DNA of 45,264 bases from the NCBI GenBank assembly GCA_041660365.1, contig JBAZWK010000003.1:1-45264 (forward strand), given 5' to 3'. How positions within the stretch are numbered: position 1 is the stretch's first letter; every line of letters begins with the position of its first letter. This DNA is from Candidatus Shapirobacteria bacterium. Lineage in GTDB: Bacteria > Patescibacteriota > Microgenomatia > UBA12405. The notes below the pieces were generated by a model. That model was not told the origin of the DNA. It did not search any database and was given only the letters and a program-made list of their open reading frames with translations. Position numbers and translations under genes: made by a program. Shown here piece by piece: positions 17,154-45,264 of this stretch.

Positions 17154-17882
17154 ATGAACAAGTATCTAATCGACGAACTTTCTGTCTTTTTTCCTTGTTA
17201 TAACGAAGAAAAAAATATCCCCACTACTGTTTCCAAAGCTATCACAGTCTTAAAAAAAACAGCCAAAAATTGGGAAATTATTCTTGTTAATGATGGCTCT
17301 AAAGATAATACGGCCAAAGTTTTAGAAACAATTAAAGCCAAATATCCCCAAAATATCAAAATTGTTACTCACAATCCCAATCGCGGTTATGGCGCTGCCG
17401 TTAAAAGCGGTCTTTATAACTCTAAATATCAATGGATTGCCTTTACTGATTCTGACGGTCAATTTGATTTTTCGGAAGTTACTAAATTTATAAAGAAACA
17501 GCAGGAAACTAAAGCTGACCTCGTTATTGGCTATTACCTGTCTCGTCAGGTTTCTAAAACAGTAATTTTAACTTCTAAAATTTGGGAAATTATTGTTTTC
17601 ATCCTATTTGGTCTAAAAGTTACTGATATTGATTGCGCTTTTAAACTTATCAATAAAAAAGTGGTGGACACTATTCCCAAACTTGAGGCCGAAAGGGGAG
17701 CTTTTATCACTAGTGAATTTCTAATTCAGGCTAAAAAATCCGGCTTTAAGTTTGCTGAAGTCGGGGTTCATCATTATCCTCGTACCGAAGGTCAAGCCAC
17801 CGGCCGCCAGCTAAAAGTTATCATAAAAAGTTTTTCCGATTTGTTAAAACTTTGGTATAAAATTAATTTTACCCGTGCTTAA
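17154..17882 (+). CDS. GT2 (GT-A) glycosyltransferase, Dpm1/GtrB/ArnC-like polyprenyl-phosphate sugar synthase candidate
   Basis: 242 aa with 'LSVFFPCYNEEKNI', 'ILVNDGSKDNT' and 'FTDSDGQFD' (DXD). Confidence 0.85.
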   Translation: MNKYLIDELSVFFPCYNEEKNIPTTVSKAITVLKKTAKNWEIILVNDGSKDNTAKVLETIKAKYPQNIKIVTHNPNRGYGAAVKSGLYNSKYQWIAFTDSDGQFDFSEVTKFIKKQQETKADLVIGYYLSRQVSKTVILTSKIWEIIVFILFGLKVTDIDCAFKLINKKVVDTIPKLEAERGAFITSEFLIQAKKSGFKFAEVGVHHYPRTEGQATGRQLKVIIKSFSDLLKLWYKINFTRA

Positions 17883-17964
17883 ATAATTTTTTACCAAAAA
17901 CTGGCTCCTAATTCTGATTTAGTTGATAGCATCTTTTTGCCGTCTTTACCATATTTCCGATTAC

Positions 17965-19290
17965 ATGGAATTTTTAGGCGACCAAGGTCGTGATGTTTTA
18001 ATTGTTCGTGATTTCTTGAAAAAAGGCGACCTCTTTTTTATTGGTCCCCAAACCAGCATCGGCAATATGTATCTTGGCCCTTTTTACTATTATTTGATTG
18101 CTCCAGCCCTACTTTTAGCCAATTTTAATCCGGTCGGCCCGGCTATTTTCGTGGCTTTGCTTTCTGTCGCCACTGCTTATTTAATTTATTTTGTGGCTAA
18201 AAAATGGTTTAATCCAAAAACTGCCTATCTTGCGGCTTTTTTATATGCTGTTTCCCCAACTGCTATTAAATATGGTAATTTTTCCTGGAATCCGAACATT
18301 ATGCCCTTTTTTGCTCTGCTCTTTATCTACCTTATGACTGAGAAACGCTACCTGTGGGCCTCCGTCGCCTTTGCTATGTGTCTTAATTCTCATTATCTGG
18401 CTCTTTTACTTCTCCCCGTCGCTCTTATTATTTGGTTAAAAGATTATTCCAAAAAATCCATCAAACCAACTCTTTTTGCCATCCTAATTTTTATAACTTC
18501 TCTTATCCCCCAAATTCTTTTTGATCTTAAACATCAGGGTCAAAATATTAATGCTTTAATAACTTTTTTTTCCCAAAGGGAAACCACCGTTAATCTAAAA
18601 GTCTATAAATCTCTACCAATTATTCCCGAACTTTTTAATCAAATTAATACCAGTCTTTTGGCCGGTAAAAATATCACTTTTGGTATTATTATCTCTATTA
18701 TCCTGTTCTTGGGTTTAATTTATTTGTTATTTAAACATCGCTCCGAAAAGTTTATTTATTGCTTATTGTGGTATTTAATTGGTTTAGTCGGTCTAGGCCT
18801 TTATAAGCAACATATTTATGATCACTATTTTGGTTTTTTGTTTCCAGTGCTTTTTATCTTAATGGGCTATCTATTAAGCAAAATTCCTAAACTACTATCT
18901 ATTCCTCTATTTATCTTCTTAACCTTCTTCTCTCTTCTTCAAAATCCCTTCCGTTGGGCGCCAAATAATCAATTATCAACGACTTCTCAAGTCGCTAACT
19001 ATATTATTTCCAAATCCGATCATCAAAATTTTAATTATGCCCTGCTTTCAAAAATGGGTTGGGGCTTTTCTTATTATATCTTTGACAATAAAAATTATTT
19101 TGATCTTAAAGATAAAATCACTGACCAACTTTTTGTGGTCTGTGTTCCTTTTCAAATTGACTGTCAGCCTATCAATAACCCCGAGTGGGGTGTCGCCGCT
19201 TTTGGCTGGGCCAAAATTGATTGGCAAACGGAGGTAAACGGGATAAAAATATATAGATTAGTTCATAATCCCAGTGGCACGAAACAATAA
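17965..19290 (+). CDS. Polytopic GT-C-like membrane protein, family A, lacking the N-terminal TM helix of its paralogs
   Basis: ATG 17965 is preferred ('MEFLGDQGRDVLIV..'). TTG 17923 is possible, and a TAG lies directly upstream at 17920-17922. It shares 'DQ...IGP..S.G..Y.GP.YYY' with the ORFs at 19274 and 22794 and has many TM helices. Confidence 0.6.
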   Translation: MEFLGDQGRDVLIVRDFLKKGDLFFIGPQTSIGNMYLGPFYYYLIAPALLLANFNPVGPAIFVALLSVATAYLIYFVAKKWFNPKTAYLAAFLYAVSPTAIKYGNFSWNPNIMPFFALLFIYLMTEKRYLWASVAFAMCLNSHYLALLLLPVALIIWLKDYSKKSIKPTLFAILIFITSLIPQILFDLKHQGQNINALITFFSQRETTVNLKVYKSLPIIPELFNQINTSLLAGKNITFGIIISIILFLGLIYLLFKHRSEKFIYCLLWYLIGLVGLGLYKQHIYDHYFGFLFPVLFILMGYLLSKIPKLLSIPLFIFLTFFSLLQNPFRWAPNNQLSTTSQVANYIISKSDHQNFNYALLSKMGWGFSYYIFDNKNYFDLKDKITDQLFVVCVPFQIDCQPINNPEWGVAAFGWAKIDWQTEVNGIKIYRLVHNPSGTKQ

Positions 19291-20593
19291 GCTGTTAATT
19301 ATCATCATTGCGGTTTTTAGTTTAATAATTTGTTTACTTGAACTCAGTAAGGGCTATACCTTCGAGTGGGATCAGGCCGACGACGCCGCCAAAGTTTTTT
19401 CTATTATTCAACTCCAAAAACCACTTTTAATTGGTCCTCGTGTCGCGAATGATAATGGTTTTTTTATTGGTCCCTACCATTACTACTTTTTACTGCCTTT
19501 TTACTTGCTAACCCGGGGTGACCCTCTTGCTGGCGTTTATGCCCTGCTTTTTGTTAATGTTTTGACGCCAATAATTTACTTTCTTCTTGCTAAAAAAATA
19601 TTTAATCAAAAAATAGCCCTACTTTCGGCTTTAATCCTTCCACTTTGCCTTGGCAAGATTTGCTGGAATATCATGTATGCCCCTCTAATTTCTATCACCG
19701 CTTTTTATATCTGTTATCAGGCCATAAATAAACGCTTTAGTTTTCCCTTAGCTATGCTCTTTGCCGCTTTTGTGGCTAATGTTCATTTAGTTCCGGCCTC
19801 ATTAACTCCAATTATTATTTTATCTTTTCTTTTGGCTAAAAATAAACCCAAAACTAAAGAAATAATTCTTGGTCTTCTCCTTTTTTGTCTGCCCTTCTTA
19901 CCTCTGATTATTTTTGATCTTCGGCACAATTTTTTAAATCTCAATAAATTATTACAAATGCTTTTTGGTCATTCTGACCAAAATACCCTAACTTATGGCT
20001 ATATTTGGCTACGTTCTTTTTGGCGCAGTTTAAATATTATTGGCTTATTCCCAGTCTTACTGGAACGCCTATTTTTCCTTCTAATTTTAATAATTTTTCC
20101 CTTCTTTATCACTGGGCGTAAAAATAAAATTTTAGTTATTGTTTGGTTATTGTTACCCTTGGCAGCCTTATCACAATATAAGGGTACTGTTTCCGAATAT
20201 TATTACGGTATGTTAACTTCTCTTTTACCTTTATTTTTAGCCTATCTTGTTTTTAAATCAAAAAGGCCAATTCTATTTATTGTTCCACTTGTTTTTTTAA
20301 TATTATTTTCGATCCTTAAAATATCTCAATTACCTAGATCGTTGATTACCCTTAATGACAAAAAGGCTGTTGTTGATTATTTGGTCAATCAAAAAAAAGA
20401 CCAACCCTTTAATCTTTCCTATGAAACTGGCCTGGGCTTTGATTTTGGCTTTGATTATCTTTTTAATTATCGGGGTAACCCACCCAAAAATGTTGATAAT
20501 GCCCATCTTTACACACTATTTTTAAACAGTCATTATCCTCCTCAAAGCAATATTGTTTTTCAAAAAAGTATCTATTTATTAGTTAGAAGGTGA
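19274..20593 (+). CDS. Polytopic GT-C-like membrane protein, family A
   Basis: GTG start at 19274. TM1 is followed by 'WDQADDAAKV..LLIGPRVANDNGFFIGPYHYY', then roughly 10 or more TM helices and a C-terminal soluble tail. Confidence 0.65.
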   Translation: MARNNKLLIIIIAVFSLIICLLELSKGYTFEWDQADDAAKVFSIIQLQKPLLIGPRVANDNGFFIGPYHYYFLLPFYLLTRGDPLAGVYALLFVNVLTPIIYFLLAKKIFNQKIALLSALILPLCLGKICWNIMYAPLISITAFYICYQAINKRFSFPLAMLFAAFVANVHLVPASLTPIIILSFLLAKNKPKTKEIILGLLLFCLPFLPLIIFDLRHNFLNLNKLLQMLFGHSDQNTLTYGYIWLRSFWRSLNIIGLFPVLLERLFFLLILIIFPFFITGRKNKILVIVWLLLPLAALSQYKGTVSEYYYGMLTSLLPLFLAYLVFKSKRPILFIVPLVFLILFSILKISQLPRSLITLNDKKAVVDYLVNQKKDQPFNLSYETGLGFDFGFDYLFNYRGNPPKNVDNAHLYTLFLNSHYPPQSNIVFQKSIYLLVRR

Positions 20594-20618
20594 TTAAGCT
20601 ATAATAAAATTAATATTT

Positions 20619-21386
20619 ATGAATCAAACTTTATCGATTGTCATTCCCTGTTATAACGAAGAGAATAATCTCAAGAGAGGGGTCCTAGATGAAGTAGCCG
20701 ACTTTCTTAAAACAGTTGATTTTGAATGGGAAGTTATTATTGCTAATGACGAGTCTACTGACAATAGTTTAAAAATAGCCCAGGACTTTGCTAAAAAACA
20801 CGATCATTTCAAAGTTTTAGATTTACCCCACGGTGGCAAACCCTCGGCTGTTTGGGGTGGCATTCAAAGCGCCAAATATCCTTTAGTTCTTTTTACAGAC
20901 ATGGATCAGTCCACTCCTCTCCAAGAAATTGAAAAATTATTAGCTTTTTCTGATAAATACGACGTTATTATTGGTTCCCGAGGCAAAGATCGCGATGGTA
21001 ATTCCTTACTTCGGATACTTATGTCTCGAGCCTTTCTGCTTTTTCGCCGTTTAGTTCTTTTACCAAAAATTATCGACACTCAATGTGGTTTCAAAATGTT
21101 TAAAACTGACGTGGCCAAAAAACTTTTTCCAAATCTTCAATTTTTTAAAGATAAATCTGATAAAAAGGGTTGGCGAGTTTCGGCCTTTGATGTCGAACTT
21201 CTTTTTATGGCCCAAAAATGGGGCTATCATATAAAAGAAGTCGAAGTTGTTTGGAAAAATGAAGATACTAGTAACACTAAAGGTGATAATAATGCCCGTT
21301 TTAAGAAAGAATCTCTCAATATGATTCAAGAAATAATTAGAGTCAAAAGCAATGATTTCAAAGGACTTTATGAACAAAAATCTTAA
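20619..21386 (+). CDS. GT2 (GT-A) glycosyltransferase, second Dpm1/GtrB-like polyprenyl-phosphate sugar synthase candidate
   Basis: 255 aa with 'LSIVIPCYNEENNL', 'IIANDESTDNS' and 'FTDMDQSTP' (DXD). Confidence 0.85.
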   Translation: MNQTLSIVIPCYNEENNLKRGVLDEVADFLKTVDFEWEVIIANDESTDNSLKIAQDFAKKHDHFKVLDLPHGGKPSAVWGGIQSAKYPLVLFTDMDQSTPLQEIEKLLAFSDKYDVIIGSRGKDRDGNSLLRILMSRAFLLFRRLVLLPKIIDTQCGFKMFKTDVAKKLFPNLQFFKDKSDKKGWRVSAFDVELLFMAQKWGYHIKEVEVVWKNEDTSNTKGDNNARFKKESLNMIQEIIRVKSNDFKGLYEQKS

Positions 21387-22797
21387 AAACATCCTTATAT
21401 TAGGCATAATTTGTTTAATATATTTATCTTCTAGAATCTATCGTCTAGAATCACTGCCTATTTTTGGCGATGAAGCCATTTATATTCGTTGGTCTCAAAT
21501 CATCAAAAGTGTCGACACTCTCCGCTTTATTCCTCTTACGGATGGTAAAGAACCTCTCTTTATGTGGCTGACTGCTCTTAATTTGAAATTTTTTACCCCT
21601 TTAATTGCCGGAAGATTAATTTCTGTTTTTGCCAGTCTGGGTTCTGTTATTGTTCTTTATTTGCTAACTTCCTCTTTTCTGCCTTCCTTAATTTATATTC
21701 TATTGCCCTTTACTTTCTTTTTTGACCGCCTCTCTCTGGCTGACAGTCTTTTGTCATTTTTTGGTCTTTTATCACTATATTTAACCTTAAAGTTAGCTAA
21801 ATATCCCCGTTGGGATTTATCCATAATTCTGGGTGTAGTTTTAGGTTTAGCTTGGCTGACTAAATCCCCAGCTATCTATTTTATAGTCTTAACTTTAGCT
21901 ACTTTCGTTTTTATCAATCTTAAAAATATTAAAAAAATATATTTTCCCTTATTGTCAGTACTAATTGCTTTTATTATTTATAATCTTTTGCGTCTCGGGC
22001 CCCAATTTAGTCAAATTGCCATTCGCAATCAGGATTATATCTGGCCGCTTTCTGAAATTTTAAAACATCCTTTTGATCCCTTAATTCCTCACTTAAAAGA
22101 TGTTCTTCATCTTTATTCATACTATATTTCCATACCTATACTTTTGTCCCCACTTCTATATTTTATTTTTAGAAAAAAAATAAAGTTTGATTTAAATTTT
22201 ATAGTTTATTTAGCCTGGTGGATTCTACCCTTAATTGCCAATGCGGCCATGGCAAAAGTTTTTACTGCCCGTTACATTCTTTTTACTCTTCCGCCACTGA
22301 TTCTTTTATTTTTCTATTTTTTAAAACCTCTTTTTAATAAAAAATATTTTTTAATTTTATTTCTGTTTTTTATTCCCAACTTATGGCGAATTTATCAGAT
22401 TAGTTTTTATCCCCAAAATCTAAAATTAACTTCTACTGAAAGCGGTTATGTTTCCGGGTGGACTTCGGGCTGGGGGATAAAAGAAGACGCTGATTATTTA
22501 ATCTCCCGTTCCAAAACGGCTAATATTATTGTTGGTACCGAGGGGGCTTTTGGCACTCTACCGGACGGTTTACAGATCTATACCAATCAGATCCCTTATC
22601 TTACCGTTTTTGGTGTTGGTATCGATATTACCCAAATTCCGCCTAAATTAATCGATGCCCAGAATCACGGTGATGAAGTTTACCTACTTTTCAACGCCTC
22701 TCGTCTTAAACTTAGTTCTCTTGATATGGCCAAGTTAACTTTAGTCAAAAGCACCTCAAAACCTGACGGCGACAAGCTAGTTCTCTATCGCTTATGA
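21370..22797 (+). CDS. ArnT/PMT-like GT-C glycosyltransferase, family B
   Basis: ATG 21370 ('MNKNLKNILILG'); 21352 is an alternative. The first loop has 'LPIFGDEAIYIRW' plus 'KEPLFMWL', as in the ArnT/PMT_2-type DE motif. It is polytopic with a C-terminal soluble domain. Confidence 0.75.
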   Translation: MNKNLKNILILGIICLIYLSSRIYRLESLPIFGDEAIYIRWSQIIKSVDTLRFIPLTDGKEPLFMWLTALNLKFFTPLIAGRLISVFASLGSVIVLYLLTSSFLPSLIYILLPFTFFFDRLSLADSLLSFFGLLSLYLTLKLAKYPRWDLSIILGVVLGLAWLTKSPAIYFIVLTLATFVFINLKNIKKIYFPLLSVLIAFIIYNLLRLGPQFSQIAIRNQDYIWPLSEILKHPFDPLIPHLKDVLHLYSYYISIPILLSPLLYFIFRKKIKFDLNFIVYLAWWILPLIANAAMAKVFTARYILFTLPPLILLFFYFLKPLFNKKYFLILFLFFIPNLWRIYQISFYPQNLKLTSTESGYVSGWTSGWGIKEDADYLISRSKTANIIVGTEGAFGTLPDGLQIYTNQIPYLTVFGVGIDITQIPPKLIDAQNHGDEVYLLFNASRLKLSSLDMAKLTLVKSTSKPDGDKLVLYRL

Positions 22798-23978
22798 AAC
22801 GTTTTTTACCATTAATTTTCATTTTCATTTTTGCTTTAATTTATTTTATTCCTAGGTTATTGAACCTTTCTCAAAATATACAATTTCGCTCTGACCAAGC
22901 TCTGCATCTTCTTGAAGTTAAACAAATGGTCGATTCCCATCAGCTTCGTTTAATTGGCCCGGCGGTTACTTCCAAAACTTTAAATGGGCGTCAATTCTTT
23001 ATCGGGTCAACTTATTATTATTTTTTGGCTACTTTAGGCTTAATTTTTAGTTGGTCGCCTTTAAATATTACTTTTGCTCTTATTGTTTTTGAATTTATTT
23101 TTTATGCTATTTTTATTAATTATTTGCGTCAACATTTTGGTTATTTCTCCTCAATCCTTGTCGCCCTGGTTGTTTCTTTTTCACCCTATTTAATTTTTCA
23201 CAGTTTCTTTTTTTGGAATCCTCATTTTTTAATTCCACTTTCTATTTTATTTATAATTTTTCGTAAAAACCCTTATCTTTCGGCCTTTATTTGGGGTCTA
23301 GCACTAAGTTTTCACTATTCCGCTATCTTTTGGCTTATACCCTTTATAATTTTTAGATTTAACAACCACCAATTTAAATTTAAAACATTTTTACTTTCAG
23401 TTCTTCTTTTTTTATGTGCCAATTTACCCTTCATTTTTTTCGAATTGCGTCACCAATTTTATAATCTCAAAACAATATTATTAATTCTTAGTCATTCTTC
23501 CAGTTCTTTTGAGCTTACTCCTCACTACTTTGTTTTTTCATTACTGATTTTTTTAATTTTCTTTTTGCTTTATTTAAGTCAAAAAACACATCTTCCCTTT
23601 TATCTATTATTGATGATCTTTCTTTTTTTTAATGATTCGGCTTCCACATTGAATTATCATGGTCTTAATTATCCAACACAACTAAAAATAACCCAATCTA
23701 TCGCCAATAATTGCCCTATAACCAAATATAATATTGCCAGTACTAACCAAGGTGACACCCGAGCTTATGATTTGCGTTATTTATTAACCATTAATCATTG
23801 CTCTCCGGATACTGTTGATAATTATCCCAAGGATCAAACAATATTTTTAATTGCTCCATCCTCACGGCCGCCATTAACAGAAAGCGTTTGGGAAATTTCT
23901 TCCTTCAAGCCTTTTAAGGTCAATAAAACAGAAAAATTAAATAATGACTTGTTTCTATATCGCCTCGATAAATCCTGA
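22794..23978 (+). CDS. Polytopic GT-C-like membrane protein, family A
   Basis: TM1 is followed by 'RSDQALHLLEV..LIGPAVTSKTLNGRQFFIGSTYYYF'. The start overlaps the upstream stop in ATGA. Confidence 0.65.
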   Translation: MKRFLPLIFIFIFALIYFIPRLLNLSQNIQFRSDQALHLLEVKQMVDSHQLRLIGPAVTSKTLNGRQFFIGSTYYYFLATLGLIFSWSPLNITFALIVFEFIFYAIFINYLRQHFGYFSSILVALVVSFSPYLIFHSFFFWNPHFLIPLSILFIIFRKNPYLSAFIWGLALSFHYSAIFWLIPFIIFRFNNHQFKFKTFLLSVLLFLCANLPFIFFELRHQFYNLKTILLILSHSSSSFELTPHYFVFSLLIFLIFFLLYLSQKTHLPFYLLLMIFLFFNDSASTLNYHGLNYPTQLKITQSIANNCPITKYNIASTNQGDTRAYDLRYLLTINHCSPDTVDNYPKDQTIFLIAPSSRPPLTESVWEISSFKPFKVNKTEKLNNDLFLYRLDKS

Positions 23979-24001
23979 GGCTTTCATAGTAAAATAAAAG
24001 T

Positions 24002-28751: not shown

Positions 28752-28767
28752 TAAACTAAACACACCT

Positions 28768-33424: not shown

Positions 33425-33425
33425 T

Positions 33426-36932: not shown

Positions 36933-37365
36933 TTGTACTTGTCGGACGAATAATTTGACTTTTCATTTGCTCGGTTAAAATCTTTCCGTCAAGGTAGCAA
37001 CTAACATTATTTTTATAAATTAAATTTACATCAAAACCAATTATGCGGGCATATTCCTTAAAAAATCCGTCCACTGTTTTATCTGAAAACGCTGATAAGG
37101 ACAAGGTACTTACGGCTTTTTTACCACTATTACAAAAAATATTAATTTTGACATAATTACCCACTTCTTTAGGGTCGCCCAAAATTTGATATTTGCATAA
37201 ATCGTTAGTAGTATCTCTAAAAATTGATTTACCAGAAACCATTTCATTCAACTTACTAGTTGTAAAATTCTTTTGAAGTCGGATTTTTAAACCAAAATAC
37301 ATCACCGAAGCAAAAATAAGATAAATAATTCCAAAAGTCAGTAATATTTTATTTCTTCCGAACAT
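36898..37365 (-). CDS. Small N-terminally anchored protein with an extracytoplasmic domain (unknown function)
   Basis: The start is taken at the ATG complementary to 37363-37365 ('MFGRNKILLTFGIIYLIFASVMYFGL'). TATACT (complement of 37373-37378) lies 7 nt upstream. It overlaps the downstream minus-strand GT-C gene by 35 nt. Confidence 0.5.
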   Translation of the reverse strand: MFGRNKILLTFGIIYLIFASVMYFGLKIRLQKNFTTSKLNEMVSGKSIFRDTTNDLCKYQILGDPKEVGNYVKINIFCNSGKKAVSTLSLSAFSDKTVDGFFKEYARIIGFDVNLIYKNNVSCYLDGKILTEQMKSQIIRPTSTIDCSENTINEK

Positions 37366-37385
37366 AATATATAGTATATATTGAA

Positions 37386-38660
37386 ATGTTAAAAAATATC
37401 TACAAAAAATTAACACTCAGTAAAATACTAATTATTGCCTTATTTACAAGATTAATTTCCTGGCCTTGGATATATAACGGTGACGTCACCTGGACCTATT
37501 GGTGGGGAAAATTTGCCACCGAGTTTACTTGGCGCGGCTATTACGATTGGTTAAATTTTGGTGGTCACGGTCGTCCCGACCTACCCATGCTAAATATTTA
37601 CTACCTCTGGACAGTCCGGCAAATATATTTATTTTTTTATAATATATTTTGGTATCTAAATGTCCACATCCCTCTTTTTCCTTCAAAATTTATGCAATGG
37701 TATTTTATTGACGGTAACCAGTATCTTATAAAAATTCCTATGATTATTGCGGACATTTTAATCATCTATTTTTGTTACAAATTTACGAAATCTAAAATTA
37801 TTGCCCTGGTTCTAGCCTTCTACCCTCCCATGATTTACAACAGTGCTGTCTGGGGCAGTGGTGACAGTATCGTAAATCTATTTGCCTTACTTAGTATTTA
37901 CTATGCTTGGAAAGCCAAATATATTCCTACCGTATTATTTTATCTTTTTTCAGTTCTTTATAAACCTACACTTTTAATTTGGGCACCAATTTTCCTGGTA
38001 ATTTTGATAAAAAATAAAATAAATCTAAAAAGTCTTTTATTGTCCTTAATTTTTATATTGACATTCTTATATTTTATATGTCAGCCTTTTAATCCCATTG
38101 AAATTAACCCACTAGTCTGGTTCCTTCGAACTATGTTAGTTAAGATTCTACCCGGAGTTATGGATCAGGTAACTGCTAATGCGATGAATTTTTGGGGCCT
38201 CCTTTATGGCTTAAAACCCAAACTTGATTATTTTTTAATCTTAAATTTTATCAGCGCTAGAAATTTTTCCCTGGTCCTTTTTGGTGCTTTTTACCTTTAT
38301 CTTATAAAAAAACTCTTTAAAAATTATTCTCCAAAATATTTACTTTTAACCCTGGTTACCGTCTCCCTAACTGCATTTACCTTTATGACCAGGATGCACG
38401 AACGTTATTCGTATCCAGCCCTAATTCCACTACTTCTACTTTGTCATTACGATCATCGTTATATTAAATATTTTATTATTCTTTCTTTTACTCATCTCCT
38501 AAATGTTTATGCCTCCTGGGGTATTCCCACGATACCATTCTTGTATTCTCTAATAAATAGTGACCTCGTTGTCAGAGTTATTTGTCTAATAAATACCTTG
38601 GTAACTTTAAAACTGATTTTCTATAATCCTTCAAAAGGCAGTCAGCCTAAATTAGTGTAA
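37386..38660 (+). CDS. Polytopic GT-C-like membrane glycosyltransferase, family E
   Basis: 'NGDVTWTYWW', 'RPDLPMLNIYYLW', 'PPMIYNSAVWGSGDSI', 'LYKPTLL' and 'MHERYSYPA'. Confidence 0.6.
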   Translation: MLKNIYKKLTLSKILIIALFTRLISWPWIYNGDVTWTYWWGKFATEFTWRGYYDWLNFGGHGRPDLPMLNIYYLWTVRQIYLFFYNIFWYLNVHIPLFPSKFMQWYFIDGNQYLIKIPMIIADILIIYFCYKFTKSKIIALVLAFYPPMIYNSAVWGSGDSIVNLFALLSIYYAWKAKYIPTVLFYLFSVLYKPTLLIWAPIFLVILIKNKINLKSLLLSLIFILTFLYFICQPFNPIEINPLVWFLRTMLVKILPGVMDQVTANAMNFWGLLYGLKPKLDYFLILNFISARNFSLVLFGAFYLYLIKKLFKNYSPKYLLLTLVTVSLTAFTFMTRMHERYSYPALIPLLLLCHYDHRYIKYFIILSFTHLLNVYASWGIPTIPFLYSLINSDLVVRVICLINTLVTLKLIFYNPSKGSQPKLV

Positions 38661-38683
38661 AATGTAGTATCTAAGTCACTTTT

Positions 38684-39880
38684 ATGAAATTTAAACGAGT
38701 CTTTATTATCGCCCTAATCATCCGACTCTTATTAGCCCCTCTCTTTTACCATCCCGACATAAAATCCCAAAACTTTCACTTCCAATTTCTCTCACAAGGC
38801 CAGTTTAATATTTATCAATATATTTATGATAATAAAAACCACTTACCTTATCGTGATACCTTCAATTATTTGCCTTTAACCTATTTAACTTTTGGTTCTT
38901 TGCAAACATTTCAAAAAATTATACTACCACCTGACTTTACTCAATGGTTAAACGATTGGGGAGGCTCTCAATACAGTTATGCCAACTTACCCTATTTTCT
39001 CCTGATTCTTAAAATTCCTTATATATTTTTAGATTTGCTGATCGGGTATTTGTTATATAAAATTTCCGCTTCCAAAAAAGTTCTCTATTTTTGGTTATTC
39101 AATCCTTTCTCCTTTTACTTAATTTATATTGTTGAAAATTTCGATATCCTTCCGGTATTTTTAACCTTACTTTCCTACTATTTAATTAAATCAAAACCCT
39201 CTCTATCCTTCCTAATTTTTGGTTTTGCCATTGCTTTCAAATTTTATCCCTTAATCTTTTTGCCATTTTTCCTTCTCTATCAAAGTAAAAATCTCCTTAA
39301 AATGATCAAATATTCAATAATTGCTACAATTCCTACGATTTTGTCAGTTATTCCCTATGCCTCCAGTCCAGCCTTTTGGCAGTCTTTTTTTGGCTCCGGT
39401 TTAACGCAAAAAATTATTGAATTAAGGTTTTATCAGATCCCAGTTTTTCCGGTAATTTACCTTATTATTTTATTTTTCTGTTTCTTATCTAAAAAAATTG
39501 ACTTACCCTTTCAAATATTTTTATTATTCTTACTTTTTATCAGCACTGTCAACTTTCACCCCCAGTGGATACTTTGGTTTCTTCCTTTTGTTTTTCTCTT
39601 AAAAAACATTTTTCATCCCCGCTTCTTTTTTACCCTTCTTTTATTAACTATTTTAATTTTGTTATATGTGTTCCTTATTAATGATAACTATTTAACCTGG
39701 GGTCATTTAATTCCTATTGATCCGGAGTTTTTATTAATAAGTTCCCCCTACGAAGTCATCAAAAATCATTTCGGCATAAATCCTCAACTAATTCAAAACT
39801 ATGTAAAATTATCCATTGCTTTTGTTTCTTTTCTGTCTGCAATTATCTATGAAAAAAACTCTTCTCGTCATTTGTCTTAG
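38684..39880 (+). CDS. Polytopic GT-C-like membrane glycosyltransferase, family E/GT87 (DUF2029)-like
   Basis: 'YHPDIKS', 'FNYLPLTYL', 'LKIPYIFLDLLIGYLLY', 'FNPFSFY' and 'AFKFYPLIFLP'. The motif order matches 34202 and 37386. Confidence 0.55.
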   Translation: MKFKRVFIIALIIRLLLAPLFYHPDIKSQNFHFQFLSQGQFNIYQYIYDNKNHLPYRDTFNYLPLTYLTFGSLQTFQKIILPPDFTQWLNDWGGSQYSYANLPYFLLILKIPYIFLDLLIGYLLYKISASKKVLYFWLFNPFSFYLIYIVENFDILPVFLTLLSYYLIKSKPSLSFLIFGFAIAFKFYPLIFLPFFLLYQSKNLLKMIKYSIIATIPTILSVIPYASSPAFWQSFFGSGLTQKIIELRFYQIPVFPVIYLIILFFCFLSKKIDLPFQIFLLFLLFISTVNFHPQWILWFLPFVFLLKNIFHPRFFFTLLLLTILILLYVFLINDNYLTWGHLIPIDPEFLLISSPYEVIKNHFGINPQLIQNYVKLSIAFVSFLSAIIYEKNSSRHLS

Positions 39881-40427
39881 TATATTATTATTACTGTTTT
39901 TTTTAGTAATACTCCCGAGCTTTACTATTCGAAAACGTCAGGGAACTTCCCTTGGCAACGGTAATCTCCAAATGTCCTTTATCAAAAACAAACCTATTAA
40001 TTTTTCCTTTATTTCGGACAAATCTAATCTCCAAAGTCTTAGCATCGACATGAAAAATCCAGCTATCTTAAATAATTCCAAAATAAACTTTAAAATAAGT
40101 GGACCAAACTCTCAAAGAGAAATTGTCTTTTATGGTAATAATATTGGCGATCCTTCCTCTGTTCCGTTAAAATTTGACTCATTTTCTGATCCAGCTTCCA
40201 CCACCTATCAAGTTTCATTATCTACCGATAATGTTGACCCTCAATCTCTATATTTTATTACCAATCAAGATTATCAACCACTCTTCAATAGTTATTATCT
40301 TCAATCAGACCTCAAAACTAATCTCAAAACTAATTTTAACCGCCAATTAAATCTTTTCCATCAACGAAATCTAATACTTAATGTAATTTACATTACCTTA
40401 ATTGTTTATCTAATATTAGCTCTCTAG
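39849..40427 (+). CDS. Small protein with TM helices at both ends flanking a roughly 150-aa beta-rich domain (unknown function)
   Basis: ATG 39849 ('MKKTLLVICLSILLLLFFLVILP'). The C-terminal helix is 'LILNVIYITLIVYLILAL'. No family was recognised. Confidence 0.5.
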   Translation: MKKTLLVICLSILLLLFFLVILPSFTIRKRQGTSLGNGNLQMSFIKNKPINFSFISDKSNLQSLSIDMKNPAILNNSKINFKISGPNSQREIVFYGNNIGDPSSVPLKFDSFSDPASTTYQVSLSTDNVDPQSLYFITNQDYQPLFNSYYLQSDLKTNLKTNFNRQLNLFHQRNLILNVIYITLIVYLILAL

Positions 40428-40451
40428 TGGTATAAAATATGTAAGAATCAA

Positions 40452-42095
40452 ATGAAAATTAAAAACTTTATTCTAGTTCTTATTATCCTATTTGCTGGAT
40501 TTGTTCGACTCTACAAAATAACTACTCTTCCACCTTCTTTGTATTACGATGAAGTCGATGCCGGCTACCAGGCCATGATATTCAATCAAAATCAGACGGA
40601 TTATTACGGGAATAAATTTCCAATTCATTTTCACTCTTTTGGTGATTTTCGAACTTCCTTACAGATTTATTCTATTGCTCTGACTCAAAAATTAACCCAT
40701 AACTTAGATCTTTCTGTCCGTTTACCCTCGGCCGTATTCGGTATTTTATCTGTTATTGTCCTATTTTTAATAACTGAATCCTTAATTCCCAGTTTTCTTT
40801 TAGCCGTTTCTCCTTGGGCAATCCACTATAGTCGGATTGGTTTTGAAGTTTCCGGAATGCTTTTGTGTCTTCTCTTGGGTATTTATTTTTGGCAAAAATA
40901 TATCCGAAATAACAAAAAAAACATCTATTTATATCTCAGTGCTCTGTTTTATTGCCTTTCACCTTATTTTTATAGTACTGCCAAACTATTTATTGTTATT
41001 ATTGCCCTTTTAATGGCCATAATTTGGCGCCAGACCATTTTAAAGTTGGGTATCAAAAAACTAATTTTACCCCTTATTTTTGCCACTCTTCTTTTAGTTC
41101 CCATGGCCAAAGACACTATAAACGGTAAAGCCGGCTATCGTTTTTCCTACATTGGCATTCTAACCATACCACACCGGGAACAAGCTGTTGACACCCTGCG
41201 TTATCAAGACGCTTCAATTGATCATCCTAATGAAATTGGCATCCGCACCACTCTAATTTCCTCCCTTCTTCACAACAAATATCAACAAATTGCTGAGAAA
41301 TTTGTTTCTAATTACATCACTTCTTTTTCTTCAAATTTTCTGTTTTTAGAAGGGGATAACAATGCCCGACACGGTTTTGGTGGTCATGGCTTATTGTATT
41401 TAATTGATCTTATCTTTTTTAGCATTGGTTTATTTTCCTATTTTTCTAAAAACCCCAAAAACAAACTCTCTGCTTTGTTTTTTTGGCTTTTTCTATTTTC
41501 TCCAATTCCTTATGCCTTAACCCGTGATTCTATCGGTCCTCACGCCACTAGATTGATTTTAATGTTACCTTCAATAATCTATTTTTGCTATTTAGGCATC
41601 AAATACATTCTGTCAAAATATCCCAAATCAATTTACTTAATTGTCCTATTATATGGACTTTCTTTTCTAAATTTTTGGCATTACTATTATTATCATTACC
41701 CCCAAGAATCAGCTGCTGTTTGGAATACAGGCATGAAAGAGGCAGTTATCGATACTAATATTTACCCCAATGATGATTTAGTTTTTTCCGATTCCTACCT
41801 CTCATTTGTTTCCTTTTTTCTTTTTTATCATCCCTATACTTTTAATTCTCAAGATTCCTTGAGTAATCACTTAAGCCAAATCAGTAATTCCTCGTTTTCT
41901 GGCCAGGTAATTGACAATAAATATTTTTTTGGCCATGTAAATTGGACTAATCTTTCAAACTTTCCCCACGACACCGTTTATATTATTCCTGCTTCAGAAT
42001 ACAAAATAAACTCTTTCCCTGGTTATCAAATAATAAAACATATTGACAAAAAATATGAAACTCAGGAAGGGTTTTATATTATAAAAAATCAATGA
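40452..42095 (+). CDS. ArnT/PMT-like GT-C glycosyltransferase, family B
   Basis: 'TTLPPSLYYDEVDAGYQA' (DE motif), 'RLPSAVFGILSV' and 'FLEGDNNARHG', with a C-terminal soluble domain. Confidence 0.7.
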   Translation: MKIKNFILVLIILFAGFVRLYKITTLPPSLYYDEVDAGYQAMIFNQNQTDYYGNKFPIHFHSFGDFRTSLQIYSIALTQKLTHNLDLSVRLPSAVFGILSVIVLFLITESLIPSFLLAVSPWAIHYSRIGFEVSGMLLCLLLGIYFWQKYIRNNKKNIYLYLSALFYCLSPYFYSTAKLFIVIIALLMAIIWRQTILKLGIKKLILPLIFATLLLVPMAKDTINGKAGYRFSYIGILTIPHREQAVDTLRYQDASIDHPNEIGIRTTLISSLLHNKYQQIAEKFVSNYITSFSSNFLFLEGDNNARHGFGGHGLLYLIDLIFFSIGLFSYFSKNPKNKLSALFFWLFLFSPIPYALTRDSIGPHATRLILMLPSIIYFCYLGIKYILSKYPKSIYLIVLLYGLSFLNFWHYYYYHYPQESAAVWNTGMKEAVIDTNIYPNDDLVFSDSYLSFVSFFLFYHPYTFNSQDSLSNHLSQISNSSFSGQVIDNKYFFGHVNWTNLSNFPHDTVYIIPASEYKINSFPGYQIIKHIDKKYETQEGFYIIKNQ

Positions 42096-43696
42096 AAAAC
42101 AAAATTATCTATCTAATTTTATTTCTCATCAGTCTTCTCTCTGTTTGGCGGCTTTTTCAAGTCGGCTATCCTTCAATGCAAGATGATATGCAGATTTTTC
42201 GTTTAGAGCAATTTGATCAATGCCTCAAAGACGGCCAAATTCCCTGCCGTTATATTGCTGATGGGGGATTAGGCTATGGCTACCCACTCTATAACTTTTA
42301 CTCACCATTACCCTATTCTGTCGCGGAAATCTTTCACCTTCTCGGTTTTTCTTTCATTAACTCTATAAAAATTTCCCTTATTTTGCCTGCTTTTATTCGT
42401 ACCTTTGGCATGTATTTCCTAGCCACGGCTTTTTTTGGTTCCGGCGGCGGAATCTTAAGTACTGTCCTTTTCGCCTTTGCCCCTTATCAAGCACTTAACA
42501 CCTTTGTTAGAGGGGCTATTGCCGAAAATTGGGCGTTATCTCTACTGCCATTTATTTTTTGGTCTCTCTATAAACGCCACAATAAATTATCAATCACCTT
42601 TTTAATTGCCCTTTTTCTCAGCCATAATTTAACTATAATTTATGCCTTACCTCTATTATTAATTTTTTCCATATTTACCAAAAATTTCAAATATTCTCTT
42701 CGAAGTCTTTTTTGGTCATTTTGTATCACCAGTTTTTTTGTTTTGCCTGCCTTTTTTGAAAAGAATCTCACTACTGTCAATACCATGACTCAGGGGTATT
42801 TCAGTTATGTTATTCATTTCACCACTCTTAAAGAATTATTTGTTTCTAACTTTTGGGGTTACGCCGGCTCTATGTGGGGGCCCATAGACGGTCTTTCCTT
42901 TAACATTGGACTCTTTCAGTGGCTTATTCCTAGCATAATTTTTATCTATTACTTTATTCATAAAAATTTAAAAAACCGTCGCTTAATTATTGCCTTATAT
43001 TTAATTGCTGTTTTGGCACTATTTTTAACTCATTCCAAATCCACCTTTATTTGGCAGCTATTGCCCTTTATGGCCTATTTTCAATTTCCTTGGCGTTTTT
43101 TAGCCCCGGTAATTTTTTGTTTTAGTTTTATTGGCGGGGGACTAGTTCAAACAATTTCTGCCAAATATAAAAAATTAGTTCTAGTTGCGTTAAGTTTTAT
43201 GATTATTTTTATAAATTTACCCTATTTTCAGGAAGATATCTGGTATCCAAATCTCACCGATTCTCAAAAACTAACTCCTGCGGAAATTACTCGTCAAAGC
43301 GGCGCCGGCTTAATGGATTATTGGCCAAAATACGGCAAAAACTTTCCCACTACTTTTGCCCCTTCCGGACCTATTATTGTTTCCGGCCAAGTTAGCCTAG
43401 ATAACTTTTCTAAAAATAGTCGTCAAGTTAAATTGAATCTTTTGGTTATTACCCCTATGGCCACTCTTAACCTGCCTGTTGTTTATTTCCCTAATTGGGA
43501 ACTATTCGTTGATAATCAAAAAACAACTTATCAAATAGAGCCAAAGCTTGGGTTAATTCAAATCAGCTTAGCTCAGGGTCAACATCAAATCTTGCTGAAT
43601 TTTGTTAACACTCCTCTCCGAACTATCGCCAACAGCCTTAGCCTTTTAACCCTACTGAGCTTTATAATATTTATAATCCGTGAAAAACGTTCATAA
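42092..43696 (+). CDS. Large polytopic membrane protein, family C (paralog of 24002-25732)
   Basis: 'QDDMQIFRLEQFDQCLKDGQIPCRY..GLGYGYPLYNFYSPLPY', 'QFPWRFL' and 'FPNWELFVDNQKTTYQIEPKLG..GQHQILLNF'. The start overlaps the upstream stop in ATGA. Confidence 0.65.
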   Translation: MKNKIIYLILFLISLLSVWRLFQVGYPSMQDDMQIFRLEQFDQCLKDGQIPCRYIADGGLGYGYPLYNFYSPLPYSVAEIFHLLGFSFINSIKISLILPAFIRTFGMYFLATAFFGSGGGILSTVLFAFAPYQALNTFVRGAIAENWALSLLPFIFWSLYKRHNKLSITFLIALFLSHNLTIIYALPLLLIFSIFTKNFKYSLRSLFWSFCITSFFVLPAFFEKNLTTVNTMTQGYFSYVIHFTTLKELFVSNFWGYAGSMWGPIDGLSFNIGLFQWLIPSIIFIYYFIHKNLKNRRLIIALYLIAVLALFLTHSKSTFIWQLLPFMAYFQFPWRFLAPVIFCFSFIGGGLVQTISAKYKKLVLVALSFMIIFINLPYFQEDIWYPNLTDSQKLTPAEITRQSGAGLMDYWPKYGKNFPTTFAPSGPIIVSGQVSLDNFSKNSRQVKLNLLVITPMATLNLPVVYFPNWELFVDNQKTTYQIEPKLGLIQISLAQGQHQILLNFVNTPLRTIANSLSLLTLLSFIIFIIREKRS

Positions 43697-45248
43697 ATAC
43701 ATTTTTGTCATTATTATTGCTTTAGCCATTTTTTTTCGTTTTTGGCACCTCTCAAACCTACCTAGCGGTCTAAATTGGGACGAAATTTCCCACGGATACA
43801 ATGCCTATTCGCTTTTAAAAACTGGTCAAGATCAATGGAGCCAATCCTGGCCAATTTTTAATTTTCGGGCTTATGGCGACTATCCCACCACCGCCAATCT
43901 CTATTTCACCATGCCCTTCATTGCCCTTTTTGGACTCAATGCCTTTGCCATTCGTTTTCCGGCGGCTATTTTTGGCCTTCTCTTTGTCGTTTTTAATTAT
44001 TTTCTGGCTAAATTAATTTTTAAAAATGAAAAATTAGCCCTGTTTAATATGTTTTTAGCGGCGCTTTCCCCTTGGGCTTTGTTTCCCTCTCGGGGTGTTT
44101 TTCAGTCAAATCTAGCCCAATTTTTCTTTATTGCCGGTATCTTCTATTTTTATAAATCACTTTTAAAAAATAATTATGCCTATCTTTCGGCTTTATTTTT
44201 TGGTATTTCTTTATATTCCTATCACAATACACGCATTGCTGTGCCGCTATTAATTGGCTTTTTTGTCATTTATTATTGGCGCCAATTAAAAAATAAAACC
44301 CATTTATTTGCCTTAATTATTTTTCTTTTTTTTGCAATTCCTAATCTATTAAATTTATTTTCCCCAGAATCGCAGGCCAGAAATCGTTGGGTGGGCATTA
44401 TTAATCCCACCTCAATTAATTTAATTAACGAAAGCCGCCGTCTGTATACTGGCCCCGCTTTTCTTAACCGCTTCTTTAACAATAAGGTCACTTATTTTGG
44501 TAAACAAATTGCTATAAACTATGTTGACCTGTTTAATCCCTTACCTCTATTTTTTCAAGGTTCCCAAAACTATCAATTTAATCCGCCGTCTACCGGTCTA
44601 CTTTTTATTATTCTTTTGCCCCTCTTTTATCTAGGTCTCTTTCGTCTTCGGCAATTTTTTATTCCTTTTTTAATTGCCTTACTTCCGGCCGCATTAACTG
44701 TTGGTGATTTTCCCTCAATTCGGGCTACTATTGCCTTACCTTTTTATTTTTTGGCCATTAGTTATGGTATTTCTTATATCAAGAATATCAAACTATTTTA
44801 TTTAATTATTTTTATTTTTCTCATCGAATTTGGTTTGTATTGGCAAAAATATCTTCAATACAATGTCAACTATTCCCAAAATTGGCAGTATGCTTACCAA
44901 GAAATGGTTACTAAATTAAAAACTGATTATTCTCAGTACCAGCATATTTTTATCACTAAAAAATATGGTGAAGCTCACGAATTTGTTTTATTTTACTGGC
45001 CATGGGATCCTAAAAGTTACCAAAATGATCCTCAAAAAAAGTGGGATTTTCATGCCGATTGGTACTGGGTTAATGCTTTTGATAAATTCACCTTTGTCAA
45101 CGACTGGGAAATTGCTTCATTAAAATTATCCAAAAATTCGCTTTTGATTACTTCACCGCAAAATTATCCCCAAAATAATGCTAAATTAATTGACAGTGTG
45201 CCTTTTTTAAACGGGCAAACGGCCTTTGATTTTGTCAGCTATGACTAA
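43680..45248 (+). CDS. ArnT/PMT-like GT-C glycosyltransferase, family B
   Basis: GTG start at 43680. It has 'SNLPSGLNWDEISHGYNA' (DE motif) and 'RFPAAIFGLLFV', with a C-terminal soluble domain. It aligns by eye with 40452-42095. Confidence 0.7.
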   Translation: MKNVHKYIFVIIIALAIFFRFWHLSNLPSGLNWDEISHGYNAYSLLKTGQDQWSQSWPIFNFRAYGDYPTTANLYFTMPFIALFGLNAFAIRFPAAIFGLLFVVFNYFLAKLIFKNEKLALFNMFLAALSPWALFPSRGVFQSNLAQFFFIAGIFYFYKSLLKNNYAYLSALFFGISLYSYHNTRIAVPLLIGFFVIYYWRQLKNKTHLFALIIFLFFAIPNLLNLFSPESQARNRWVGIINPTSINLINESRRLYTGPAFLNRFFNNKVTYFGKQIAINYVDLFNPLPLFFQGSQNYQFNPPSTGLLFIILLPLFYLGLFRLRQFFIPFLIALLPAALTVGDFPSIRATIALPFYFLAISYGISYIKNIKLFYLIIFIFLIEFGLYWQKYLQYNVNYSQNWQYAYQEMVTKLKTDYSQYQHIFITKKYGEAHEFVLFYWPWDPKSYQNDPQKKWDFHADWYWVNAFDKFTFVNDWEIASLKLSKNSLLITSPQNYPQNNAKLIDSVPFLNGQTAFDFVSYD

Positions 45249-45264
45249 AGAAAAATTTTTTCTA

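Follow-up and report, generated by a model that had tools for sequence, protein, structure and literature searches.

The contig JBAZWK010000003.1 of Candidatus Shapirobacteria, which belongs to the Candidate Phyla Radiation (CPR, Patescibacteria), was analyzed over its whole length, and the window referred to below is this complete contig of 45,264 bp. It contains an island of 24 consecutive genes at positions 17154-45248. According to the open reading frame (ORF) list and Pfam, these genes encode seven glycosyltransferases of family GT2, one of family GT4, one Wzx-type flippase, 13 polytopic membrane proteins and two small bitopic proteins. Pfam matches, homology and fold placed all 13 polytopic proteins among the membrane glycosyltransferases of the GT-C class, and the count of 21 glycosyltransferase genes made in an earlier sequence-only reading of this DNA was therefore correct. 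We propose, with a probability of about 0.68, that the island builds a surface glycan, which would be assembled on a lipid in the cytoplasm, flipped by Wzx and extended outside the membrane by the GT-C enzymes. Most neighboring genes of the island overlapped or were at most 40 nt apart, and all 24 were on the plus strand except 35496-36932 and 36898-37416. The GC content of the island was 0.30-0.36 vs 0.35-0.41 upstream. Genes are named here by their first coordinate; some starts differ from the sequence-only reading through alternative start codons (17923, 21352, 28711 and 31323 instead of 17965, 21370, 28768 and 31377, respectively).

The 13 polytopic proteins were assigned as follows (bit scores are given with the cutoff of the Pfam model where the two were compared).

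17923 to 19290, plus strand: GT-C family A, member 1 (PMT_2, 37.9 bits vs a cutoff of 26.1)
19274 to 20593, plus strand: GT-C family A, member 2, fast-diverging (no Pfam match of its own; paralogy to 17923)
21352 to 22797, plus strand: GT-C of the PMT_2 type, outlier of family B (PMT_2, 27.0 bits vs 26.1; GDE motif)
22794 to 23978, plus strand: GT-C family A, member 3 (no Pfam match of its own; paralogy to 17923)
24002 to 25732, plus strand: GT-C family C, member 1 (PTPS_related/GT39-like), in the conserved core (HDD motif; no Pfam match of its own)
27117 to 28751, plus strand: GT-C family D, an unnamed GT-C_A family with an STT3/AglB/PglB/DPY19-like fold (AlphaFold2 (AF2) model and Foldseek)
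34202 to 35530, plus strand: GT-C family E, member 1 (GT87/ALG6/PIG-M-like, GT-C_B; GT87, 25.8 bits vs 25)
35496 to 36932, minus strand: GT-C of the PMT_2 type (PMT_2, 44.4 bits; VDE motif)
37386 to 38660, plus strand: GT-C family E, member 2, ALG6/PIG-M fold (family profile, AF2 model and Foldseek)
38684 to 39880, plus strand: GT-C family E, member 3, divergent (34202 and 37386 each matched in BLASTP with E = 3e-5; HPD motif)
40452 to 42095, plus strand: GT-C family B (PMT_2, 26.1 bits, exactly at the cutoff; YDE motif)
42092 to 43696, plus strand: GT-C family C, member 2 (PTPS_related match under the cutoff, 24.1 bits; weak YfhO match)
43680 to 45248, plus strand: GT-C family B (PMT_2, 41.9 bits; WDE motif), the final gene before the contig end

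Each of the 13 proteins had 4-12 hydrophobic segments in a crude hydropathy scan, which undercounts. An acidic motif directly after the first transmembrane segment (TM1) was read as GDE, VDE, YDE or WDE in family B, HDD or QDD in family C, GHD in family D, GD, NGD or HPD in family E and as a D-rich motif in family A. The earlier statement that all 13 are polytopic with an acidic motif in the first outer loop was thus borne out, all 13 carrying the motif, with 17923, where no TM1 precedes it, as the exception in topology. Since the N-terminus was rich in Lys and Arg in 12 of the 13 proteins (17923 being the exception), the positive-inside rule places the N-terminus inside and the loop with the acidic motif outside the membrane. 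No TM1 was found in 17923 at the only available start codons; its positional homologue in the related contig L002 had 444 aa, and that in L010 was longer (472 aa) and may include TM1.

All-versus-all BLASTP and phmmer searches grouped 17923 with 19274 and 22794 as family A (phmmer E = 1e-28 and 1e-16, respectively), 24002 with 42092 as family C (37% identity), 34202 with 37386 (phmmer E = 1e-20) and more weakly with 38684 as family E, and 40452 with 43680 (E = 1e-28) and more weakly with 21352 as family B, leaving 27117 as a singleton, family D. About five families had been predicted, and A, C, D, E and most of B were reproduced; 35496, which had been counted in family B, stood alone in both direct searches, and its membership is based on the shared PMT_2 match and a 76% hhalign link. 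With hhalign, 21352 was connected to family B at 96%, the family A profile to family B at 98.8%, and families A, B, C and E to one another at 84-99% probability, values which may be inflated by shared hydrophobicity since the profiles were built from few membrane protein sequences. Family D was not linked to any of them.

The PMT_2 model of Pfam was matched at or above its cutoff by 17923, 21352, 35496, 40452 and 43680, and the GT87 model by 34202. For the 13 membrane proteins, no informative names were obtained from NCBIfam. When the family E profile, made from 67 sequences, was compared with the PDB sequences, it matched GPI mannosyltransferase I (PIG-M) with E = 1e-10 and yeast ALG6 with E = 7e-10. 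The AF2 model of 37386, with a predicted local distance difference test score (pLDDT) of 95.4 and a predicted TM-score (pTM) of 0.93, found ALG6 (6snh) as the best Foldseek match with E = 2.7e-7 and a TM-score of 0.69/0.62, followed by GPI-MT-I and ALG12. Homologues of family E bear the JGI name 'Gpi18-like mannosyltransferase', some of them with Alg6_Alg8 or GT87 domains, and the homologue of 38684 in L002 had a weak GT87 match. By profile and by global fold, family E belongs to the GT-C_B class (ALG6/PIG-M/PimE). The family C profile had no match among the PDB sequences. Family C was assigned to GT-C because its homologues matched PTPS_related (11 of 43) or PMT_2 (9 of 43); some of these homologues are named 'glycosyltransferase family 39 protein' at NCBI.

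The PMT_2 and GT87 matches, the profile matches to ALG6 and PIG-M and the AlphaFold and Foldseek results for the two least certain families together indicated that the polytopic proteins are GT-C enzymes and not transporters, the objection that had been foreseen when the GT-C assignment was first made. Families A, B and D fall into the GT-C_A class, family E into GT-C_B, and family C is probably GT-C_A as well. A motif scan of all island proteins found no WWDxG motif in any of the 13, in agreement with the earlier observation, and no WWDxG-like motif ([WYF][WYF]DxG, with WW[DE] included) in any island protein. The 13 enzymes would use polyprenyl-phosphate-linked donors on the extracytoplasmic face of the membrane, for which the co-located ArnC/GtrB/DPMS-like GT2 gene gives indirect support.

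Family D (27117) was linked to GT-C through the fold search only, because it had no match in Pfam, NCBIfam or the PDB sequences, and its profile matched neither the PDB sequences nor, in hhalign, the other island families. The AF2 model of 27117 (pLDDT 89.6, pTM 0.89) was used for Foldseek, and the top 12 matches were all STT3, DPY19, AglB or PglB (E = 6e-7 to 3e-5, probability 1.0); ArnT (9e-4), AftA, AftD and PimE were found further down, and transporters appeared in the Foldseek lists only below a probability of 0.2. An isolated C-terminal domain of AglB-S2 also matched the model at E = 0.05. When family D is called oligosaccharyltransferase-like on the basis of this model, a shared fold class is meant, neither family membership nor function. 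The family is large, with 1,280 clusters at 50% identity in a library of 1.84 billion proteins, 556 of them at E <= 1e-30.

The Wzx gene (25705) and the family D gene (27117) overlap by 37 nt, and the two genes were also adjacent in the related contigs L002, L009 and L010. Furthermore, a protein of 1,639 aa (P0407) starts with a Wzx that is 39% identical to 25705 over the full length and ends with a family D domain (32% identity). Because of the overlap, the adjacency and the fusion, we propose that family D, possibly together with family C, handles the flipped oligosaccharide-lipid.

About one quarter of the best family D representatives were 800-1,640 aa long (P0374, P0378, P0386, P0395, P0407 and others). 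The long proteins have a signal peptide and a secreted N-terminal domain of about 450-590 aa with the conserved motifs NPVRG..FW, TWLLR.D and DQ[YF]STD.YQ.WG. This domain had no match in Pfam or PDB and was absent from the window and the related loci.

The soluble glycosyltransferases and the flippase were identified with Pfam and NCBIfam as listed below. The eight soluble enzymes named earlier were all recovered, seven with Glycos_transf_2 and 31323 with Glycos_transf_1/GT4, and so was the single Wzx-type flippase, with Polysacc_synt_3 and MOP flippase matches.

17154 to 17882, plus strand: GT2 without transmembrane (TM) helices, candidate polyprenyl-phosphate sugar synthase, ArnC/GtrB/DPMS/WpsA-like (Glycos_transf_2, E = 2.4e-30)
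20619 to 21386, plus strand: GT2 without TM helices, probable second polyprenyl-phosphate sugar synthase (Pfam GT2, E = 1.7e-24)
25705 to 27153, plus strand: Wzx/MOP-family flippase (Polysacc_synt_3, E = 2.6e-49, also Polysacc_synt; NCBIfam MOP flippase, E = 1.7e-36)
28711 to 29703, plus strand: GT2 (Leloir) of the putative lipid-linked-oligosaccharide block (Pfam GT2, E = 4.2e-21)
29703 to 30623, plus strand: GT2, rhamnosyltransferase-like (Pfam GT2, E = 2.5e-16)
30614 to 31402, plus strand: GT2 (Pfam GT2, E = 1.4e-16)
31323 to 32552, plus strand: GT4 with GT-B fold (Glycos_transf_1, E = 2e-20, and Glyco_transf_4)
32552 to 33424, plus strand: GT2 (Pfam GT2, E = 1.2e-23)
33426 to 34235, plus strand: GT2 (Pfam GT2, E = 1.1e-23)

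The first gene of the island, 17154, had ArnC as its best NCBIfam match, and PpgS and Dol-P-hexose transferase were matched as well. Against the PDB sequences, 17154 gave full-length matches to ArnC (residues 6-220, 9e-18), GtrB (1.5e-13) and DPMS (1.8e-7), and the motif DSDGQ (DxDxQ) was found at residues 99-103. The NCBIfam matches of 20619 were PgfS, ArnC and Dol-P-hexose transferase. The five remaining GT2 proteins (28711, 29703, 30614, 32552 and 33426) were without DxDxQ and resembled ordinary glycan-elongating GT2 enzymes; among them, 29703 matched the NCBIfam rhamnosyltran model with E = 1.5e-13, under the cutoff of that model. The flippase gene overlaps both of its neighbors.

Two proteins of about 680 aa, P0299 and P0313, are fusions of a 33426-like GT2 (60-63% identity) with a family E GT-C domain; in the window their counterparts 33426 and 34202 are adjacent, overlapping genes. 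We considered whether these proteins join a polyprenyl-P-sugar synthase to a GT-C enzyme and rejected this, since the GT2 part is of the 33426 Leloir type without DxDxQ.

The DxDxQ motif has been proposed as a hallmark of polyprenyl-phosphate GT2 enzymes (PMC10821137). In Lactococcus, a DPMS-like GT2 that has no TM helices primes the repeat unit of the polysaccharide pellicle (PSP) on C55-monophosphate, and priming is followed by cytoplasmic elongation, Wzx-type flipping and GT-C transfer (PMC10821137). A comparable order of steps can be drawn for the island. On the cytoplasmic face, 17154 and probably also 20619 would load single sugars onto polyprenyl monophosphate, and one of the resulting polyprenyl-P-sugars would probably also prime the lipid-linked oligosaccharide. 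As 17154 is a DPMS-like DxDxQ GT2 that could prime on polyprenyl monophosphate, the absence of a WecA/WbaP-type enzyme may be explained. Five GT2 enzymes and one GT4 enzyme from a presumably co-transcribed gene block (28711-34235) would then elongate the oligosaccharide, and Wzx (25705) would flip the oligosaccharide-lipid to the outer face. There, the flanking family D enzyme (27117), the family C enzyme (24002) or both may transfer or polymerize the oligosaccharide.

The other eleven GT-C enzymes (families A, B and E and the second member of C) would add residues or branches from flipped polyprenyl-P-monosaccharides. Because only one or two lipid-monosaccharide donors are expected, each of them most plausibly adds one linkage type. 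Such a division of labor is known from the assembly of mycobacterial lipomannan (LM), lipoarabinomannan (LAM) and arabinogalactan (AG), in which every GT-C enzyme forms a single type of linkage on the outer side of the membrane. The product would be a surface glycan, carried on peptidoglycan by way of the LCP enzyme encoded upstream of the island, or on lipid or surface proteins.

Four related contigs were compared with the island.

L002 (Logan SRR12918152), 289,881-bp contig: homologues of 17154 to 37386, mostly 64-84% identity, 19274 only 41%
L009 (JGI 3300038679), 836,690-bp contig, 367-389 kb: from the 27117 homologue to beyond the 43680 homologue, mostly 55-82% identity, 39816 only 29%
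L011 (Ga0209416_1000002), 498,020-bp contig: from the 34202 homologue to beyond the 43680 homologue, 65-82% identity
L010, 949,187-bp contig: core order only, core genes 52-66% identity (family D 57%)

At least five independent assemblies showed this gene order, among them all four contigs listed (L010 for the core), and since the locus lies there inside contigs of 0.29-0.95 Mb, it is chromosomal and not chimeric, the second objection foreseen in the sequence-only reading. The homologues of families D, C and E were overwhelmingly from records of 'Candidatus Shapirobacteria' or 'Patescibacteria group'. One related contig (L005) is labelled 'uncultured Gammaproteobacteria', and P0027, P0138 and P0329 are labelled 'Candidatus Methanoperedens sp.'; as those contigs carry island genes of the Shapirobacteria type, the labels are probably due to mis-binning.

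A core with the order C-Wzx-D-GT2-GT2-(GT2)-GT4-GT2-GT2 was kept across the relatives, including the distant L010 with 55-65% identity, and the GT-C genes around it were variable. Counterparts of 19274, 22794, 34202, 35496 and 37386 were absent or replaced in L010, in which other PMT_2 genes were present, some of them inverted. A further relative, L006, was without 34202-37386 and 40452, and 35496 was kept in L002, L009 and L011 at 75-77% identity. Divergence was mosaic: 19274 was 41% identical in L002 vs 64-84% for its neighbors, 39816 was 29% identical in L009 vs 70% in L011, and 38684 was 55% identical in L009 vs 73% in L011. Recombination, or diversifying selection that acts on particular GT-C genes, may lie behind such a pattern, and a stable core with a mosaic periphery would be typical of surface-glycan loci under diversifying pressure. 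Roles in phage evasion or host attachment, as suggested before, would be speculation, and the mosaic divergence of some genes is the one observation in their favor. Between two PMT_2 genes of L010, at 2736-3188, a 150-aa ORF with a faint signal for Y1_Tnp (transposase of the IS200 type) was found, and it possibly marks a point of rearrangement.

It had been noted that the island runs off the 3' edge of the window, and in L006, L009 and L011 it does continue. L009 had two further PMT-type genes after the 43680 homologue and an extra PMT_2 gene before the 40452 homologue. In the 10 kb downstream of the 43680 homologue in L006 and the corresponding 11.4 kb in L011, genes for two PMT/PMT_2 proteins, a GT2, a GT4 and two GT2 proteins were found. 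These were followed by B12-binding radical-SAM enzymes (one in L006, at 18289-19758, and two in L011, at 16734-19770), another GT2 and a SAM methyltransferase. The radical-SAM and methyltransferase genes suggest methylation or another modification of the glycan. None of these three relatives showed where the island ends; judged from them, its full length would be 40 kb or more, with 15-16 genes for GT-C enzymes and about 13 for Leloir glycosyltransferases, and the window would hold its first 28 kb. The window contig and an identical 2.2-kb contig (L001, Logan SRR18595301) both break off no more than 16 nt after the stop codon of 43680 (45249-45264). As the next genes in the relatives are tandem PMT paralogues, this shared stop is probably an assembly break caused by paralogy or strain variation.

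Several observations weigh against the proposed assembly line or parts of it. The second candidate synthase, 20619, carries the variant motif DMDQS and conforms only in part to the polyprenyl-phosphate GT2 type. Neither 17154 (242 aa) nor 20619 (255 aa) has a C-terminal TM segment by hydropathy, and no small multi-TM ORF for a partner of the GacJ/WpsB or DPM2/3 type was found in the window, which leaves the membrane anchoring of 17154 unexplained; such a partner could be encoded elsewhere. The window has a single flippase and no donor flippase of the GtrA, MATE or ArnE/F type, so the flipping of polyprenyl-P-monosaccharides is also unexplained. For family D, the superpositions of the 27117 model gave TM-scores of 0.38-0.51 with a root-mean-square deviation of 13-15 Å, the WWDxG motif of oligosaccharyltransferases was not found, and the Wzx-D fusion is known from a single representative cluster, P0407. 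The possible inflation of the hhalign links between families counts on the same side, and so do two more general points: a classical primer could be encoded elsewhere in the genome, in which case priming on the monophosphate would not be required, and instead of building one glycan, the 13 GT-C enzymes may work on several acceptors that are unrelated.

The last point can be extended into a different explanation, in which the island is a set of independent three-component decoration systems, each made of a synthase, a flippase and a GT-C enzyme. The core alone would then make an oligosaccharide, and many of the PMT_2-type enzymes would act on differing acceptors, for example by O-glycosylation of pilins, S-layer proteins or sortase-anchored proteins (PMT-like) or by modification of lipids (ArnT-like). 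Families A and B are indeed of the PMT_2/ArnT type, and characterized PMT_2/ArnT-type enzymes act on proteins or lipid A. A gene for a sortase-type DUF11 surface protein lies immediately upstream, and the peripheral GT-C genes were gained and lost among the relatives independently of the core. However, the 13 GT-C enzymes share just one or two candidate donor synthases, the genes form one operon-like array, and in the relatives this array continues with Leloir glycosyltransferases and sugar-modifying enzymes, which is more typical of a single polysaccharide locus. We therefore regard separate decoration systems as unlikely.

A conventional Wzx/Wzy heteropolysaccharide locus appears more improbable still. 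It would require a WbaP/WecA-type primer encoded at some other place in the genome or in the stretch of the island that was not assembled, a Wzy-like polymerase among the polytopic proteins as a so far unassigned member, and the small protein 39816 as a short Wzz or polysaccharide co-polymerase (PCP); LCP would ligate the product to peptidoglycan, and the PMT_2-type genes would serve for side-chain decoration only. The position of Wzx next to the GT2/GT4 block, the two-TM topology of 39816, which is that of a PCP, and the LCP gene upstream would fit, and the sequences analyzed do not extend to the true 3' end of the island. However, Pfam detected no initiating phosphoglycosyltransferase (Bac_transf/WbaP or MraY/WecA Glycos_transf_4) among the 41 ORFs of the window or in the downstream regions of L006 and L011, and no Wzy_C/O-antigen ligase or Wzz family in the same regions, so that of this pathway only Wzx (25705) was found in the regions scanned. 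In addition, all 13 polytopic proteins were placed in GT-C families and not with Wzy/WaaL-type proteins, and a DxDxQ GT2 heads the island. Genes for ABC exporters and NDP-sugar synthesis were absent from the window too, and the list of missing functions given earlier (primer, Wzy, Wzz, exporter and NDP-sugar genes) was accurate for the window, for Wzz as judged by sequence.

An artefact, with polytopic ORFs that encode transporters or other, unrelated membrane proteins or with a contig that is a chimera of several genomes, is very unlikely. Six of the 13 proteins had no Pfam match of their own and some homologues (P0027, P0138, P0329 and the L005 contig) carry labels other than Shapirobacteria, which would speak for an artefact, but every family is covered by fold or profile evidence, and the gene order is shared, at 65-84% protein identity, by independent assemblies on large contigs. 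The assembly of one surface glycan by lipid-linked synthesis, flipping and GT-C extension is thus the explanation that we prefer.

Among characterized systems, the lactococcal rhamnose-rich cell wall polysaccharide (Rha-CWPS) with PSP (WpsA/B, WpsC-F, WpsG, WpsH/I and WpsJ) and the streptococcal GacI/J/K/L system were compared with the island (PMC10821137). They share with it a DPMS-like DxDxQ GT2 without TM helices, cytoplasmic elongation by GT2/GT4 enzymes, a flippase of the Wzx type and transfer by GT-C outside the membrane. Their module needs no WecA/WbaP, an LCP enzyme takes part in wall attachment, and their gene content is variable between strains and linked to phage recognition. In contrast to the one to few GT-C enzymes of these systems, the window has 13 and the relatives have 15-16. 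The island has neither a GacJ/WpsB-like partner nor a rhamnan module (RmlABCD and ABC transporter), its GT-C enzyme beside Wzx is of an unnamed family with an STT3/AglB-like fold, and its host is a CPR bacterium with a genome of less than 1 Mb.

The mycobacterial and corynebacterial pathways for LM, LAM and arabinogalactan (Ppm1, PimE, MptA/B/C, EmbA/B/C and AftA-D) resemble the island in having many GT-C paralogues that each form one linkage outside the membrane, fed by only one or two polyprenyl-P-sugar donors, and in the presence of both PimE/GT87-type (GT-C_B) and Emb/Aft/PMT-type (GT-C_A) enzymes. The mycobacterial GT-C genes, however, are scattered over a 4.4-Mb genome (embCAB/aftA region), whereas those of the island form one array. 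The island has no decaprenylphosphoryl arabinose (DPA) pathway with a UbiA-type DPPR synthase and no sign of a phosphatidylinositol anchor, and the sequence identity of its enzymes to the mycobacterial ones was negligible.

The three-component systems (GtrA/GtrB/GtrV, CsbB/GtcA/YfhO and PPPRS/MATE/GT136) likewise combine a GT2 synthase, a flippase and a GT-C enzyme, and they add single sugars after export (PMC11127046; reviewed in PMC8035078). The weak YfhO match of 42092 is in line with this. Different from them, the window has no donor flippase of the GtrA or MATE type, and about two synthases stand against 13 GT-C enzymes instead of a ratio of 1:1.

The island had been described as an endoplasmic reticulum (ER)-like assembly line, and its likeness to the ER lumenal pathway (ALG3/9/12, ALG6/8/10, PIG-M, PMT, DPY19 and STT3) was found at several points: family E is akin to ALG6 and PIG-M in sequence and fold, families A and B are of the PMT_2 type, the GT-C_A fold of family D is also that of STT3 and DPY19, and cytoplasmic assembly and flipping are followed in the ER by additions on the far side from Dol-P-sugars. 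On the other hand, no oligosaccharyltransferase is recognizable in the island since no WWDxG motif was found, there is no primer of the ALG7/WecA type, and the flippase is a bacterial Wzx. The likeness is thus at the level of family and fold and not that of an orthologous pathway. The three-stage logic proposed earlier fits the ArnC/GtrB/DPMS-like 17154 with its glycosyltransferase block, the single Wzx and the 13 GT-C enzymes, but it is not specifically ER-like, because it is also the standard bacterial scheme of multi-component transmembrane glycosylation, lactococcal PSP and mycobacterial LM, LAM and AG. A more far-reaching proposal, that family D founds an unrecognized GT-C_A family which moves or polymerizes the Wzx-flipped oligosaccharide en bloc and that the island is a bacterial counterpart of the ER pathway, is put forward tentatively, as we consider it possible but rather doubtful in this combination. 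If true, at least 15 GT-C enzymes would complete a glycan outside the membrane in an organism with less than 1 Mb of DNA, using about 4-5% of its genome.

The enzyme classes and the three-stage logic are already known from the systems in PMC8035078, PMC11127046 and PMC10821137, from the mycobacterial envelope and from the ER. What is unusual is that one operon-like array holds 13-16 GT-C genes of five families, a density that we, as in the sequence-only reading, judge to be remarkable. Also unusual are the share of the genome, about 4-5% of about 0.8-0.95 Mb (a size taken from the largest contigs), the large unnamed STT3-like family D tied to Wzx, and the CPR setting. A life attached to host cells is assumed for CPR/Patescibacteria, whose surfaces have hardly been studied. 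In the literature searched on glycosyltransferases or GT-C enzymes of CPR, Patescibacteria or Shapirobacteria, no description of such loci was found. The conservation of an island of at least 40 kb in small genomes suggests that a complex surface glycan matters to CPR biology. Furthermore, the evolution of linkage specificity could be studied on this locus as a compact, naturally occurring set of GT-C enzymes that covers five families, and the locus also provides a large unnamed STT3-like family coupled to a Wzx flippase and a testable case of oligosaccharide priming without WecA/WbaP outside Firmicutes.

Positions 1-17069 of the window contain housekeeping and envelope genes, including those for SerRS, SecA, BipA, cyclophilin and a peptide-chain release factor. 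Neither a tRNA nor any Rfam family was found anywhere in the window. The envelope genes nearest to the island are the following.

12221 to 13252, plus strand: LCP (LytR_cpsA_psr) glycopolymer-to-peptidoglycan transferase (Pfam, E = 6e-21), 4 kb upstream of the island
13758 to 16223, downstream of the LCP gene: FtsE, FtsX and then an EnvC-like gene
16482 to 17069, minus strand: DUF11 surface protein, directly adjoining the island

By its proximity, the LCP enzyme could be a candidate for the final attachment of the product to peptidoglycan. The DUF11 protein carries a signal peptide and, at its C-terminus, a sorting signal of the sortase type (SPNTG, a TM/hydrophobic stretch and then RKLARGY), and, again judged from proximity, it is a possible protein acceptor for glycosylation. 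Neither the 15273 gene nor the DUF11 gene was matched in L010 or L002, so the boundary at which the housekeeping genes give way to the island is without independent support. The protein encoded at 15273-16223 matched EnvC with its N-terminal coiled coil, and no M23 domain was detected in it; its final 40 or so residues form an odd hydrophobic tail, which could be due to a frameshift or represent a divergent C-terminus.

The two small proteins of the island had no family match.

39816 to 40427, plus strand: small protein of 203 aa with N- and C-terminal TM segments flanking a loop of about 150 aa
36898 to 37416, minus strand: small bitopic protein of 172 aa with one N-terminal TM segment

By hydropathy, the product of 39816 is PCP/Wzz-like in topology only, and it matched no Wzz family. 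The product of 36898-37416 was conserved in L002, L009 and L011 at 66-67% identity.

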